The translations under genes and the position numbers were made by a program. This document shows positions 928 through 5,483 of a stretch of 15,778 bases of DNA, piece after piece (within the stretch, counting starts at the first letter, position 1; every line of letters starts with the position of its first letter). The stretch lies in NCBI GenBank assembly GCA_037445915.1, contig JBBIJQ010000045.1:1-15778 (forward strand), in the 5' to 3' direction. A model generated the notes under the pieces. The model saw only the letters and a list, made by a program, of their open reading frames with translations. It did no database searches and was not told the origin of the DNA. Source of the DNA: Planctomycetales bacterium (GTDB taxonomy: Bacteria > 4484-113).

Positions 928-1905
928 ATGGACTTCAAGCCCTGGGAACAGCAGTGGGACACGGTGGTAATCGGCGGCGGGCCGGGCGGCGTTTCGGCTG
1001 CCATCTACTCAATCCGCGGCGAGCTAAAAACGCTGCTCATTGAAAAGTCGTTCATCGGCGGGCAAATCGCCCTTACCGCCGAGGTGGAGAACTACCCCGG
1101 CGTGCCCAACACCACCGGCATGGAACTGGCGCAGAACATGGACGCGCAGCTTCGCAAGTTCAACGCGCAGATAATCAACAAGACCGTGGAACGCCTGCAC
1201 GAAGCGCCCGGCAGCGGCTATATCGTGGAGCTAAACAGCGGTGAAATGGTGGAGACCAAGACAATCATAATCGCCACCGGCAGCCGCCCCAACCTGCTTG
1301 AAGCCAAGAACGCCAAGGAGTATTACGGCCACGGCGTTTCCTATTGCGCGATATGCGACGGGCCGTTCTTCCGGGGCCAGGACGTCGTCATCGTCGGCGG
1401 CGGCGACGCGGCGATGGAAGAGGCGCAGTATCTCGCCAGCGTCTGCGGCCATGTGACCCTCGTCCACCGCCGCGAAGGCTTCCGCGCGCAGCCCATCGCC
1501 GTGAACCGCACCAAGGCCGTCCCCAACATCACGATGCGCCTGAACACCGTCATCACCGAAGTCATTGGCGCCGACGGCAAGGTGACCGGCGTGCGGCTGC
1601 GCGACACCAAGACCGAAGCCGAGAGCGTCCTTCCGGCGGCGGCCGTCTTTGTGTTCATAGGCTCTGTCCCCAACTCGCAGTTTGCGCGCGGATTTGTCGC
1701 TATGTCCGACGACGGGCAAATATATGTGGACAACCGCATGCGCACATCGCGCCACGGCATCTTCGCTGTCGGCGACATTACGCATAAAAGCCTCAAGCAG
1801 ATGAGCGTGTCGGTGGGCGAAGGCGCATCCGCAGCGCTAATGGCGCGCCATTACATCACCACCGGCGAATGGCCCGACGAGCCCCCCGGCCCCACCCACG
1901 ATTAA
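928..1905 (+). CDS. trxB: Thioredoxin-disulfide reductase
   Basis: VVIGGGPGG FAD motif, GGQI..T.EVENYPG, GVSYCAICDG redox CxxC, VGGGDAAMEEA, VHRR..FRA NADPH motif, GIFAVGD. SD AAGGAG upstream. Confidence 0.96.
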   Translation: MDFKPWEQQWDTVVIGGGPGGVSAAIYSIRGELKTLLIEKSFIGGQIALTAEVENYPGVPNTTGMELAQNMDAQLRKFNAQIINKTVERLHEAPGSGYIVELNSGEMVETKTIIIATGSRPNLLEAKNAKEYYGHGVSYCAICDGPFFRGQDVVIVGGGDAAMEEAQYLASVCGHVTLVHRREGFRAQPIAVNRTKAVPNITMRLNTVITEVIGADGKVTGVRLRDTKTEAESVLPAAAVFVFIGSVPNSQFARGFVAMSDDGQIYVDNRMRTSRHGIFAVGDITHKSLKQMSVSVGEGASAALMARHYITTGEWPDEPPGPTHD

Positions 1906-1906
1906 G

Positions 1907-2518
1907 TTAACTCCATCTCTCGGGTTTGGTTAGTAAAAACCCATTTGTAGAAGTTACTGCTTCTGGAAGTTGGCTACTTGCGAATTTTCTTCGGCCAATA
2001 ACGAAATTGCTATAGGCTGCTTCTTGTAGTTCAACAGCACTCCTTCGCGGCGGAAAGGCTACAATAACTCTCTTCGTCGGTGCTATCTGTTTAATGGTCG
2101 TAACTGCAGGCGTCAAGTCGCTATCTCCTGATACCAGCAGTGCTGTATCAAACAAGTCCATAATCGCATCTTCTATTAGAGTGACAGAGATGTTCACATC
2201 GGTCATCTTTTCGGAAGGAACAAATGTCTCAGCTCTACAGGCCGGGCACTTGAAGCTAGACAACTTATACTTGCCAAACACTATTTCGATAGCCCCAACT
2301 GCCTTGAGCGCTTCGAGATAGGTCATTTGCCGTTTCTCTTTCGCAGGATTGTCAGTCACTAAAGAAGTGAAATACTTCACGCTGCTCAGGCTCTGTTTAG
2401 GGGTGAGCAGGCTACTAATCAGCTTATGGATGTTTAGCCACATATATTTATGTCCGTATTTATCACGCAAGCCGTAATACAAGTTAAACCCATCCACGTA
2501 TGCACTTACCCTATACAT
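1907..2518 (-). CDS. NYN domain (LabA/DUF88, PIN-like fold) putative ribonuclease
   Basis: Conserved acidic motifs YVDGFNLYY, EKMTDVNI and LVSGDSDL, with an internal CPAC. Visibly more AT-rich than the flanks. AGGGAGG lies upstream. Converges on trxB with a 1-bp gap. Confidence 0.92.
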   Translation of the reverse strand: MYRVSAYVDGFNLYYGLRDKYGHKYMWLNIHKLISSLLTPKQSLSSVKYFTSLVTDNPAKEKRQMTYLEALKAVGAIEIVFGKYKLSSFKCPACRAETFVPSEKMTDVNISVTLIEDAIMDLFDTALLVSGDSDLTPAVTTIKQIAPTKRVIVAFPPRRSAVELQEAAYSNFVIGRRKFASSQLPEAVTSTNGFLLTKPERWS

Positions 2519-2545
2519 GAAACCCGATCATCCTCCCTTCAGATG

Positions 2546-2578
2546 TTGCAATTCTTATCGAGCTAAGTTATAATATCA
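2546..2578. promoter_or_regulatory. Overlapping bidirectional sigma70-type promoter
   Basis: + strand: TTGCAA (2546-2551), 17 bp, TATAAT (2569-2574). - strand: extended -10 TG-A-TATTAT (2578-2570) pointing at the NYN gene. Confidence 0.75.
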
Positions 2579-2579
2579 C

Positions 2580-2641
2580 TATGCAACGGTGAGGAGAGTA
2601 TCCTCATCCCGACGCCCCCGGCAACGGGGGCGTTTCGCATA
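2580..2641 (+). ncRNA. Putative ~60-nt structured small RNA (two hairpins, possibly closed by a basal stem), divergent from the NYN gene
   Basis: Begins ~6 nt after TATAAT. Hairpin 1: GGTGAGGA-GAGTA-TCCTCATC (2588-2608). Hairpin 2: GACGCCCCCG-GCAA-CGGGGGCGTT (2611-2634, GNRA loop). Basal stem: TATGC 2580-2584 with GCATA 2637-2641. G-U wobbles and the GNRA loop both favour the + strand. Confidence 0.6.
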
Positions 2642-2688: not shown

Positions 2689-2697
2689 TGATATAAT
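2689..2697 (+). promoter_or_regulatory. Extended -10 promoter for the transporter pseudogene
   Basis: TG-A-TATAAT, 8 nt before GTG 2706, with no SD. Confidence 0.6.
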
Positions 2698-2705
2698 CCC
2701 GCGCC

Positions 2706-3337
2706 GTGGAGACTAACCTGATAGCTGTCTGGTGGGGCTTGCTGGCGAGCACAGCGCTCATTGCCGTCGTGCATGCCGCGGCCGGCCCTGACCACTACTT
2801 TCCCTTCATCGCCATTGGCCTGGCGCGTAAATAGTCGCGCACCAAGGCGTTTGCAATCGTCCTCATCAGCGGCATAGCGCACGTCCTGTCTTCGGTCACT
2901 ATCGGCTTCGTCGGCATCGCCGCAGGCATAGGCCGGGAATCGCTGAAAATCCTTGAGGGCACGCGCGGCACGGTCGCGGGATGGCTGCTAATTTTCGCAG
3001 GCGCGCCTTATCTTGCTTGGTCGCTGCGCCCGCACCACCACAATGCGCACGCAGAAGACATCGCCAACGGCCCGCGCGCGCAGCACCGAGGTTTAATCTT
3101 CTGGATATTCGTCGCAGTAATTGTGCTCGGCTTCTGCGAGCTGTTTATCCCGCTGATGTTCGTCGCGGTGCAGATAAGCTGGGATGCGGATACATGCTTC
3201 AGCTTGAGGGCTTTGTGGGAAATGCAGCGAGACCATCGGCGGCATGTTCTTTAGGAACCCGCTGCCCGGCGACTTCAACGGCAGCGGCGGGTGGTGAGTC
3301 TTGTGTGCTCATGTATCAGTTTTCAATTAGCCTGTGA
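2706..3337 (+). pseudogene. Pseudogene of a Ni/Co transporter-like membrane protein (NicO/RcnA/UreH/DsbD_2-like); not in the ORF track
   Basis: From GTG 2706: ...VVHAAAGPDHYFPFIAIGLARK*SRTKAFAIVLISGIAHVLSSVTIG...GWLLIFAG..YLAWSLRPHHHNAH...VLGFCELFIPLMF. It has the HxxxxxDH motif, a second TM His and a His-rich loop. Premature TAG at 2832-2834. The frame loses hydrophobic character after ~3185 and stops at 3252-3254. The 3' boundary is approximate. Confidence 0.8.
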
Positions 3338-3392: not shown

Positions 3393-5483
3393 TTAAGGCC
3401 GCGAGACTTCCGCGTCCACGCCAGCGCCCAGTTCCACGAGCGGGAGGGGGTTGGCTTCGTCGGTGCCGCGCTGGGTCCACATCTTGTTGTTTGCGGCGAA
3501 GGCGAGTTCGGGCGGGTAAGTATCGTTGCCGCCGGTGTCTATGAACAGCCCGAGGTTTAGAAATAAGTCGCGCAGGCCGCCACGGCTGCCGATGTTGGCG
3601 CGGCCAAGCGTCGTGCCCGCAGCGACCTTGTAGGCGTCGTCGCCGCGCATGTCCCAGAAAATGCCGATGCCGTTGGCGTTGCCGCCGCCCAGCGACAGGT
3701 TCGGCGCTTCGTAAACGTCGTTGCCCGCGCGGTCGGTGAGGAAGCCCAGCGAGAAGTCGTGCCCCGCGCCGATTGCCATGTTCATGTCGGCGAAGTAGTG
3801 GTCGCTGCCCGCGCCGTCGTCCAGCACGCCCAGCGCGAAGTGCGCCGCCGACGCCTGCACATACCAATGCCCGTGGTAGTCGTCGTTTCCCTCGTCGTCG
3901 GCGAGGATGCCCGTGCCGTACCAGTAGCCTACGCCCTGGCCGAAGACGGCGCAGGAATACGCGTCGTTGCCCGCAGCGTCAAAGAGCAGACCCACGCCGC
4001 CTGCCCAGGAATGGCCGGTCGTGTAATCGCCGCGCCGCCCGAAGCCGCAGCCTTGCGCCAGCGAGGAGTTATGGTCCTTGCTTTGCGCGGAGGGGAAGCG
4101 GATGTCGGTATCGTTGGCGGTGTATTTGTCGTCGCCCGCGAGGTCAACCAGCAGCCCCGCGCCCATCGTGTAGCCGTAACCCTGCGACAGCGTGTAGCAG
4201 TCGTAAACATCGTTGCCCGCCGCATCGGCGAGCACGCCAGTGCCGAACACGCCTGCGCCTTCGCAGTTGGAAACGGCGGAGTAGTGGTCAGCGCCGCCCT
4301 CGTCCAGCAGCACGCCGGTTCCGAAGACGCCGCAGCCGAGCGCGAAGTCCTGCGCTGTGTAGGTGTCGTCGCCAGCGCAGTCCACGAGCATCCCGTAGCC
4401 AAAGACGCCTGCGCCGAAGCACGGCTCGGTGGCGGTTTCGCAGGTGTAAGCATCGTTGCCGTTTAAGTCCAGCAGCACGCTTGCGGGGTTGCCGAAGCCG
4501 TAGCTCACGCCTCCCCCCTGGTAGGCGTCGCCACCGCCGCTGTCTATGATGAGCAGGTAGGGCAGCGAGCCGCCGTAACTATTCGCGGCGTCGCCGTTGA
4601 GCGCGACCATGCCCCACGGGGTGTCAAACGTGAACTCGTAGTCGGCGACGGGTTGCGCCGCCTTGAGCATATTGTGAACCTTCTCCGTTACGAGCGCGAG
4701 CAGCGTCGCGCCGGTGTTCAAGTAGCCCCAGTCCACATTGTCCATCAAGTACTCGCTGAGGTCGCTGAGCTGCACATCGCGCTTGATGGCGTCAGTTCCC
4801 TGAAGCGTGTCGCCTTCCTCGGCCATCCACTTCAGCAGTTCGCGCGCAGGGTCATCAAGCTGCGACATTTGCAGCTTCGTGCGCACAGGGTCATACGCCG
4901 CGTCGTAGTAAGCCAGCACATCAGGCAGCGCGTAGAAGTAAAGCGCGGCAGCGTCGGAGATTCCTTTCGGCAGCACGGCAGCGCGCTCGGCAAGGTATTC
5001 AGCTTCGCTGGCATCCATCGTCTTGCCCTCGGCGGCGTAGCACCCCTTGACGGCATCAACGAAGTGGTTGCCTATCGTCGTGTCAGCGAGCTTCTTCGCG
5101 TATGGCACCATGACATCGCCGGTGAGCCCCAGGCGCACTGCGCTATTAAGCCGTGACTGCGCAATTTGAATGAGCTTGGACAGGCTGCCTTCCTTCGCCG
5201 CAGTGAACGCGCCGTCGCGCATGATGGGCGTGTAGGCGGGTATCTTCCACGGGTTGGCGATGAGCGTGTCAAAGAAGCGCAGGCGGTAGCGATCGCCGCC
5301 GTAGAAGTCGCGGTCGCTCAAGTCAAAAGTGCAGCCTTCCATCGTCAGCCCTACTTGGGCGAGCGCCTGGCGGATGGTTGGCGATGCGGCGCCGGCGAGG
5401 TTGTCGTTGCGCGATGCCTGTGCAGGCGCGGCAGCGGCGGTGAGGGCGAGGATGATAAAAGCTAAGGCGATTTTACGCAGCAT
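3393..5483 (-). CDS. Secreted 696-aa hypothetical protein with ~12 tandem hhhDxxGxDxY repeats
   Basis: Sec-type signal peptide MLRKIALAFIILALTAAAAPAQA, SD AGGAGG and strong GC3 codon bias. Repeats include VLLDLNGNDAY, MLVDCAGDDTY, LLVDLAGDDKY, LLFDAAGNDAY and IFWDMRGDDAY. Confidence 0.9.
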   Translation of the reverse strand: MLRKIALAFIILALTAAAAPAQASRNDNLAGAASPTIRQALAQVGLTMEGCTFDLSDRDFYGGDRYRLRFFDTLIANPWKIPAYTPIMRDGAFTAAKEGSLSKLIQIAQSRLNSAVRLGLTGDVMVPYAKKLADTTIGNHFVDAVKGCYAAEGKTMDASEAEYLAERAAVLPKGISDAAALYFYALPDVLAYYDAAYDPVRTKLQMSQLDDPARELLKWMAEEGDTLQGTDAIKRDVQLSDLSEYLMDNVDWGYLNTGATLLALVTEKVHNMLKAAQPVADYEFTFDTPWGMVALNGDAANSYGGSLPYLLIIDSGGGDAYQGGGVSYGFGNPASVLLDLNGNDAYTCETATEPCFGAGVFGYGMLVDCAGDDTYTAQDFALGCGVFGTGVLLDEGGADHYSAVSNCEGAGVFGTGVLADAAGNDVYDCYTLSQGYGYTMGAGLLVDLAGDDKYTANDTDIRFPSAQSKDHNSSLAQGCGFGRRGDYTTGHSWAGGVGLLFDAAGNDAYSCAVFGQGVGYWYGTGILADDEGNDDYHGHWYVQASAAHFALGVLDDGAGSDHYFADMNMAIGAGHDFSLGFLTDRAGNDVYEAPNLSLGGGNANGIGIFWDMRGDDAYKVAAGTTLGRANIGSRGGLRDLFLNLGLFIDTGGNDTYPPELAFAANNKMWTQRGTDEANPLPLVELGAGVDAEVSRP

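Follow-up and report, generated by a model that had tools for sequence, protein, structure and literature searches.

The 15,778-nucleotide (nt) stretch of DNA analysed here, referred to as the window, makes up an entire 15.8-kb contig (C45) of a metagenome-assembled Planctomycetales genome (G000; 1.79 Mb, 90% complete). It carries an NYN-domain nuclease gene of the HEC-09 family and, divergent from it, a gene for a small structured RNA, and the question that this locus raises is whether the RNA is a partner of the nuclease and in what capacity. The initial annotation, made from the letters of the window alone, had proposed a type III-like toxin or defence system in which the RNA would serve as antitoxin, cofactor or guide. 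In this study, we report that the partnership between the RNA and NYN is real and conserved across phyla. The two genes probably form an undescribed RNA-plus-nuclease module, in which a toxin or defence enzyme is held in check by its RNA.

Conservation of the small RNA beside NYN genes

The NYN gene, encoding 203 amino acids (aa), lies at positions 1907-2518 on the minus strand and the conserved 55-nt RNA at 2582-2636 on the plus strand. A covariance model (R1) was built from two copies of the RNA, those of the window and of genome G005, a relative of the same family, and was run over loci that had been fetched solely for encoding NYN homologues; the refined model is called R2. Both match the window RNA in full, with 86.5 bits for R1 and 65.9 bits for R2. 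When 41 genomes were searched, R1 gave a match divergent upstream of NYN in four of the five best homologues, three of them from the window's own class and one from outside its phylum. Among 80 NYN loci from GTDB species genomes, R1 matched 69, and R2 added L044, L047, L075 and L084 together with a weak match in L080 (21.7 bits). In total, the RNA was found within about 1.1 kb of NYN in 78 of these 80 loci; those without a copy were L042 and L057, the latter of which runs off the end of its contig. Bacteroidota, Dehalococcoidia, Planctomycetota, Pseudomonadota, Actinomycetota, Acidobacteriota, Ignavibacteriota and others are represented, and one plasmid is included. Within the window's own class, the RNA stands beside NYN in G013, G019, G021 (twice) and G000. 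On plasmid pTHEOS01 of Thermus oshimai JL-2, a harmless carrier that can be cultivated, it is located 62 nt upstream of the gene for the NYN protein WP_015065388.1. Neither R1 nor R2 found matches near distant NYN paralogues.

In most loci, 45-90 nt separate the 5' end of the RNA from the start of NYN. The divergent geometry noted in the initial annotation is indeed the commonest arrangement, with 74 of the 78 copies upstream and divergent (the weak L080 among them), but it is not obligatory. In L049, L061 and L077 the RNA is found solely downstream of NYN, in convergent orientation, and in L094 it is upstream on the same strand. Six co-directional loci with the NYN start beyond the RNA are available (L094, L216, L228, L232, L245 and the decayed L258). 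They begin with a promoter and the RNA, the T-run after hairpin 2 being shortened; a Shine-Dalgarno sequence comes next and, within about 15-40 nt, the NYN start. A seventh, L275, retains only the C-terminal half of NYN. Tandem RNA units were present in L049, L050, L061, L062, L074, L104 and L116, and those of L061, four in number, each have their own promoter.

Structure and transcription of the small RNA

The RNA is built of a 5' tail (A-A-C), hairpin 1, a CC-GAC linker and hairpin 2. In the window, hairpin 1 (2588-2608, plus strand), delimited by folding and covariation, has an 8-base-pair (bp) stem and the 5-nt loop GAGUA, for which the family consensus is K-A-G-Y-A. Hairpin 2 (2611-2634, plus strand) has a 10-bp G+C stem with a GCAA loop and a conserved base, GACG...CGUU. 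The predicted fold of 2575-2650 reaches -36.8 kcal/mol (z = -5.1), and none of 200 shuffles was as good. This fold also contains a 5-bp closing stem, which is not conserved, being absent even from the closest copy, that of G005, and is therefore probably fortuitous; thus, of the structure first described for this segment, the two hairpins stand but the stem joining its ends does not. The G005 copy, at the same trxB locus, is 85% identical to that of the window. All eight differences between them fall in loops or at unpaired positions or are compensatory, with an A-U pair changed to G-C in hairpin 1 and a C-G pair changed to U-A in hairpin 2.

Covariation across the family is extensive. In an alignment of 91 rows, 97.6% of the cells were paired, vs. 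29-55% when the partners were slid by one to three columns. Changes on both sides were found in 17 of the 18 pairs (322 cells in all), all eight pairs of hairpin 1 show compensatory changes, and the observed covariation values were reached by none of 500 shuffles. Since this alignment had been fitted to the model, 35 diverse copies with their flanks were aligned with MAFFT and folded with RNAalifold, and this model-free check returned the same two hairpins, with 14 of 16 pairs compensatory. The near-invariant positions are C3, C9, the G-C pair adjacent to the loop, the CC of the linker and GACG...CGUUUC at the base of hairpin 2. In the loop of hairpin 1, the G is conserved in 88 and the A in 83 of the 91 rows, while the first base is U in 68 and G in 21. 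Mimicry of an anticodon loop, a T-loop or the sarcin-ricin loop by hairpin 1 was considered by eye and discarded, as a first loop base that is U or G is unlike the fixed U33.

The strand can be read from the pairs themselves. The basal pair of hairpin 2 is G·U in 60 of 90 distinct copies, and there are about 130 G·U cells in all stems; on the other strand these would be A·C mismatches, which makes the strand directed away from NYN in the window the functional one. The promoter TTGCAA-17-TATAAT is located there at 2546-2574 (plus strand), as initially annotated, with its -10 box ending 7 nt before the RNA, and both this box and its spacing are kept in G005. Among 95 homologous copies, a -10-like hexamer matching in at least four of six positions lies 2-15 nt upstream in 81, a raw count with no shuffled baseline. 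Motifs of the type TTGACA-17-TAnAAT are found in many Proteobacteria, Chloroflexota, Planctomycetota and Acidobacteriota, while the copies of Bacteroidota have a TAnnTTTG motif at the matching place. Because the type of promoter varies with the host while its position stays fixed, this pattern argues strongly, as a comparative result, for an independently transcribed RNA. After GTTTC, T occupies positions +1 to +5 in 69-85 of the 95 copies, on the same strand as the RNA, and the best explanation is that hairpin 2 also serves the family as an intrinsic terminator. What the initial annotation expected upstream of NYN homologues, a covarying and conserved motif of two hairpins served by an outward promoter, is thus present. 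As far as the comparison of copies goes, these data show the RNA to be an independent, structurally constrained gene.

Simpler identities for the element were considered. No small open reading frame (ORF) is conserved in it, as the window has ATG-CAA-CGG-TGA and G005 a different five-codon frame, which agrees with the original reading that no ORF led by a Shine-Dalgarno sequence is present. A leader or riboswitch of the following membrane-protein gene was rejected because that gene has its own promoter, conserved in relatives without the cassette; elsewhere, unrelated genes follow the RNA. A plain terminator does not account for an element with its own promoter and, in the window, no co-directional gene directly upstream. 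A dispersed repeat of the repetitive extragenic palindromic (REP) kind, or any genome-wide repeat such as the initial annotation had named as a competing identity, was also discarded: a DNA search of the 1.79-Mb genome finds a single, full copy, to which R2 adds one weak relative (39.9 bits; contig C109, 153-207, minus strand; locus L119). The conservation of the RNA beside NYN across phyla likewise speaks against a plain terminator or REP element. The weak relative lies 9 nt after a gene resembling a transfer RNA (tRNA) for Ile (GAU) and before a tRNA-Ala-like gene, both recognized by eye, with which it would be co-transcribed; it retains hairpin 1 with a UAGCA loop, and its GAC linker is replaced.

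No Rfam 15 family matches the RNA in the search that had been suggested at the outset. This holds for the window element (E value up to 1), for the RNA in 20 NYN loci (gathering thresholds) and for that in 13 loci without NYN (E up to 0.1).

The NYN nuclease and its cassette

The protein encoded at 1907-2518 matches the Pfam NYN family PF01936 (E 1.7e-11; 45.3 bits against a cut-off of 24.2) and, over its full length (positions 1-203 of 203), the PADLOC HEC-09 model (E 2.3e-80, 267 bits). As described in the preprint sections on this family, HEC-09 is Hma-embedded candidate 9, an NYN protein embedded in Hma defence systems (bioRxiv 10.1101/2024.01.29.577857). In a 19-member alignment D9, D107, D132, D134 and a CxxC pair are invariant, in line with the acidic motifs recognized when the gene was first annotated. 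An AlphaFold2 model of the protein has a predicted local distance difference test (pLDDT) score of 91.8, and Foldseek relates it to 2qip, a LabA-like protein (E 4e-12), and to the NYN domain of MARF1 (E 6e-6). The best explanation is that it is an NYN-fold, metal-dependent nuclease, as predicted from these matches. The family comprises 3210 clusters at E up to 1e-10, nearly all of about 203 aa, and at least 570 matches were obtained in GTDB species genomes.

The gene is preceded by a Shine-Dalgarno sequence, GGGAGGA, read at 2531-2537 (minus strand), 12 nt before the ATG. A candidate extended -10 box for NYN, TG-A-TATTAT, is located at 2570-2578 on the minus strand, where it overlaps the -10 box of the small RNA on the opposite strand, as had been noted; it reads TGATATTAT, the reverse complement of these positions, and the identical motif GTGATATTATA is found in locus L008.

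A second, different NYN gene occurs in the same genome (contig C20, 15484-15985, minus strand). Its matches to profile positions 1-52 and 49-144 are in separate frames or ORFs, and it may be split or frameshifted. Distant relatives of NYN are also encoded, together with a gene for a VbhA-family antitoxin, by the 3461-bp Escherichia coli plasmid NZ_CP091696.1 (L347; 35% identity) and by Serratia rubidaea plasmids of the same size; a search of these tiny plasmids with R2 found no copy of the RNA.

In the window, NYN and the RNA gene occupy a cassette at 1906-2640 (both strands), delimited by comparison with G006 and G007, relatives within the family, and by composition. It is placed between trxB, a thioredoxin-reductase-type flavoprotein gene assigned by Pfam search (928-1905, plus strand), and a membrane-protein gene that starts with GTG at 2706 (2706-3337, plus strand) and has no Pfam family match. 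The G+C content is 44-47% across 1950-2700 vs. 57-68% in the flanks, and the NYN frame is complete, which bears out the AT-richer cassette with an intact gene first described. In G006 and G007, the gap between trxB and the membrane-protein gene measures only tens of bases (about 60-90 nt); because the flanking genes nearly abut there, 1906-2640 is read as an insertion of an NYN-plus-RNA element, and a horizontally acquired two-gene module is its best explanation. Two further readings of the initial annotation also hold. The membrane-protein gene has its own promoter, TG-A-TATAAT at 2689-2697 (plus strand), 8 nt before the GTG, which is kept in both G006 and G007, where the cassette is missing; and no protein gene that might encode an antitoxin lies between NYN and either of its neighbours in the window.

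The membrane-protein gene is a pseudogene, with an in-frame TAG at 2832-2834 where the G006 and G007 orthologues have Trp, and its frame diverges from theirs past about residue 160, near position 3190. For a 696-aa ORF further on (3393-5483, minus strand), the Pfam search gave no family at E up to 0.01.

Copies of the RNA without NYN

The RNA also occurs away from NYN genes. Viral and metagenome contigs were scanned with a restrictive pattern derived from the family consensus. On the viral contigs it gave 50 loci, of which 48 were confirmed by R2 at 35-69 bits, and no NYN relative was detected in the 50 (best tblastn E 0.94). Conversely, of 53 viral loci with an NYN relative (38% identity or less in most cases), only two had the RNA. 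Several of the RNA-bearing viral contigs carry bona fide phage structural genes, and the neighbours include genes for baseplate, tail sheath, head-tail adaptor, tape measure, endolysin and ribonucleotide reductase. Many viral copies follow a same-strand ORF by 0-70 nt, and some have a promoter of their own. An HNH or homing endonuclease gene is found 70-190 nt downstream on the same strand in L123, L162 and L156, three of 23 viral representatives, and in the metagenome locus L247 an HNH gene abuts the RNA on the opposite strand.

The metagenome contigs contained at least 119 stretches matching the pattern. For 106 of the listed matches, the contig reaches 750 nt or more to the 5' side; a divergent NYN was present in 52 of them, a co-directional NYN in five and no NYN in 49. 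R2 confirmed 38 of these 49, and the other 11 were chance matches; consequently, among the matches listed, 38 of 95 copies are without NYN and about 57 are linked to it, the 57 being counted by pattern and not by R2. Most of these orphan copies keep their promoter. They neighbour genes for HipA, ParE, HicB, an MmeI fragment, a Cas3-like helicase, RhuM, Fic, an IS110 transposase and HNH proteins, typical of toxin-antitoxin, defence and mobile regions. A cryptic NYN beside orphan copies was sought with blastp, hmmsearch and hhalign, and none was found among 19 neighbouring proteins.

In at least eight loci an intact RNA lies beside a truncated or interrupted NYN. Two of the seven strong copies in the window's own class (G005 and G015) are orphans, and in G005 the NYN gene is gone from the trxB locus, with two hicBA cassettes in its place and the RNA retained. 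These cassettes, on the minus strand at about 1600-2660 of contig C26 (L032), are tandem hicB-hicA pairs located between trxB and the orphan RNA gene. In front of each stands a near-repeat of the final 20 nt or so of trxB and some 60 nt more, suggestive of a tandem duplication that took in the trxB end.

Two orphan copies are divergent from DUF3800 genes, at distances of 53 nt (L174, 8280-8332) and 100 nt (L227, 197-251), and these two genes are 31% identical to each other. A general link between the RNA and DUF3800 was rejected, given that none of 30 DUF3800 loci of the same phylum carried the RNA. Comparison of sequences and profiles showed no relationship between NYN and DUF3800.

Proposed mechanism and alternative explanations

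We propose, with a probability of about 0.5, that the RNA is a trans-acting inhibitor of the NYN ribonuclease (RNase), which would be released when the supply of RNA fails, and that phage copies are decoys. According to this proposal, the RNA would contact the protein through the loop of hairpin 1, the linker and the base of hairpin 2, and would keep the putative RNase inactive, as the RNA antitoxin does in type III toxin-antitoxin or abortive-infection systems. It would be present in excess over NYN because it has a strong, separate and constitutive promoter. In the window, the -10 box of this promoter shares positions with the candidate -10 box of NYN, and in the co-directional form a leaky terminator would separate the RNA from NYN. 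Once host transcription stops, for instance when a phage infects, the small RNA would become depleted and NYN would turn to cutting RNA. Copies in phages and NYN-less copies in chromosomes would then act as antidotes or decoys. We infer action in trans because the arrangement varies while proximity is kept and tandem units have their own promoters. Judged from gene order, the variable geometry and the tandem units speak against a mechanism that acts in cis alone.

NYN is hardly ever found without the RNA, while the RNA is often found without NYN, an asymmetry typical of toxin-antitoxin pairs, which would fit an antidote better than a cofactor. This weighs on the explanation that the RNA assists NYN, as its cofactor, scaffold or guide or as an obligatory ribonucleoprotein substrate, instead of inhibiting it, which we regard as rather unlikely. 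The association, the covariation and the conserved single-stranded nucleotides would serve such a role equally well, and the lack of defence by HEC-09 in a heterologous host, as described in the preprint sections on it, could reflect a partner that was missing or unexpressed. However, intact RNA genes with promoters persist where NYN has been deleted or has decayed, as well as in phages without NYN, and a cofactor of no use without its enzyme would be expected to degenerate along with it. Moreover, a target complementary to the short conserved stretches was sought without success.

It seems improbable that the RNA controls the expression of NYN, be it by pairing with its messenger RNA (mRNA) in a type I-like manner, by promoter occlusion or as an attenuating leader. 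The overlapping -10 boxes of the window and L008 and the leader-terminator order of the six co-directional loci are what this explanation would lead one to expect, and a duplex scan showed a weak dip between +35 and +85 of the NYN reading frame, where the mean was -19.6 vs. about -15.5 kcal/mol. Nevertheless, the duplexes vary in register and partners from locus to locus, and the pair of the window is at background (-15.5 kcal/mol); the average dip thus comes from heterogeneous pairings, and pairing with NYN mRNA is not convincing. Furthermore, the convergent copies of L049, L061 and L077 and the orphans cannot act through promoter overlap or attenuation, and antisense control in cis needs no conservation of loop and linker sequences across phyla.

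A further explanation is that the element is primarily an RNA of phages and mobile elements, either a module for stability or termination at transcript ends or a cue for NYN, of which NYN cassettes merely carry or exploit a copy. The 48 viral copies, mostly directly 3' of a same-strand ORF, the toxin-antitoxin, restriction and mobile genes around the orphans and the HNH gene that follows in three of the 23 viral representatives are compatible with it. The promoter that the element has beside NYN and in most orphan chromosomal copies indicates that it is not the end of another gene's transcript, and it is present at 78 of 80 NYN loci vs. none of 30 DUF3800 loci. In addition, a host that constitutively makes the cue activating its own nuclease is hard to rationalise, and we consider this explanation quite unlikely.

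Finally, it is very improbable that the element acts as DNA, as an attC-like recombination or attachment site of mobile cassettes, for although its ends (AAC...GTTTC) recall the 5' AAC and 3' GTT of integron core sites, and the module is an insertion with different cassettes (the two hicBA pairs) at the same place in G005, it forms two separate hairpins with a conserved loop and not one long imperfect palindrome, its phylum-specific promoter motifs and T-run at fixed positions point to transcription, and its copies are isolated and not in cassette arrays.

Several facts weigh against the proposal that the RNA restrains NYN in trans. Close to 40% of the RNA copies, among the metagenome matches listed, have no NYN nearby, and, given this proportion and the two copies divergent beside DUF3800 genes, the RNA may have another, NYN-independent role or other partners. 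In the only published experiment, as given in the preprint sections on it, HEC-09 was cloned together with its own promoter region and did not protect against the coliphages tested (bioRxiv 10.1101/2024.01.29.577857). The module of the window sits outside any defence island. Its RNA copy is without the T-run of the family and has only TTT (GTTTCGCATAT). A very stable hairpin RNA is not obviously short-lived, as the model needs. It must also be considered that the main covariation count comes from the model-fitted 91-row alignment, and that the toxicity of NYN, its cleavage of RNA and its binding of the small RNA are putative activities. The more ambitious form of the proposal, according to which these loci belong to a widespread but unrecognised kind of RNA-antitoxin immune module, with phage RNA decoys and chromosomal orphan antidotes, and a fourth, structurally unrelated type III-like family, is tentative and in our opinion somewhat doubtful.

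Comparison with known systems

Known type III toxins share a ToxN-like fold. As in ToxIN, CptIN and TenpIN, a ribonuclease-type protein is combined here with a small structured RNA and no protein antitoxin; the co-directional variant has the order promoter, RNA, terminator and nuclease gene, an operon layout that in type III systems secures more RNA than nuclease, and some NYN loci carry tandem RNA units. Phage-borne ToxI-like RNAs also exist, and the phage copies of the present RNA recall them. In contrast, the protein fold is NYN/PIN-like, and the RNA as a rule forms one unit, in the window and mostly elsewhere divergent from NYN, that is equipped with a promoter and terminator of its own, while type III antitoxins are tandem repeats cut from a shared transcript. 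Relatives approach the type III RNA layout in part, with a single co-directional unit in six loci and in L275 with its truncated NYN. Being without a ToxN-like toxin fold and a tandem-repeat antitoxin, the module at most works like a type III system and is not a member of this group. Therefore, what stands of the type III-like reading proposed at the outset is the RNA-NYN partnership and the type III-like order of the co-directional loci, but not the fold or the repeated antitoxin. If the proposed restraint is true, it extends the logic of RNA antitoxins to a PIN-like nuclease fold, and the phage-borne copies suggest a directly testable RNA-based counter-defence.

On the protein side, HEC-09 (PADLOC PDLC04163) is the same family, and the sections of the preprint that deal with it give an NYN fold similar to MARF1 and conserved aspartates. 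It differs in that it is described there as a single protein gene, the terms 'ncRNA' and 'non-coding' being absent from the main text (bioRxiv 10.1101/2024.01.29.577857), and in that the gene of the window is not embedded in an Hma system. Our literature searches retrieved no report linking NYN or HEC-09 proteins with a partner small RNA, HEC-09 appearing as a protein only. The family is large and already figures among the candidate defence genes, and an RNA partner changes how its genes should be cloned, tested and annotated; if the proposal is true, it is also a possible reason why HEC-09 gave no defence when tested.

On the RNA side, the closest described phenomenon, on the published accounts of these motifs, is that of DUF3800-I, drum and skipping-rope, which are terminator-ended and accompany one protein family in either orientation (PMC5737381). 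In the sections of their report devoted to them, Weinberg et al. (2017) offer no function for these motifs (PMC5737381). DUF3800 as a family has 11 other RNA motifs that end in a terminator. It is described as predicted RNase H2-like and as serving as a retron effector (PMC7736814). The two orphan copies divergent beside DUF3800 genes are a point of likeness; unlike those motifs, the present RNA belongs to no Rfam 15 family and its main partner is NYN, not DUF3800. It adds to Rfam 15 an absent family with unusually clear covariation. The RNA is thus a new and widespread family that is linked to a candidate defence nuclease and also has copies in phages, and whereas a nuclease with an RNA partner is of a known kind, this fold, this RNA and this architecture are new.

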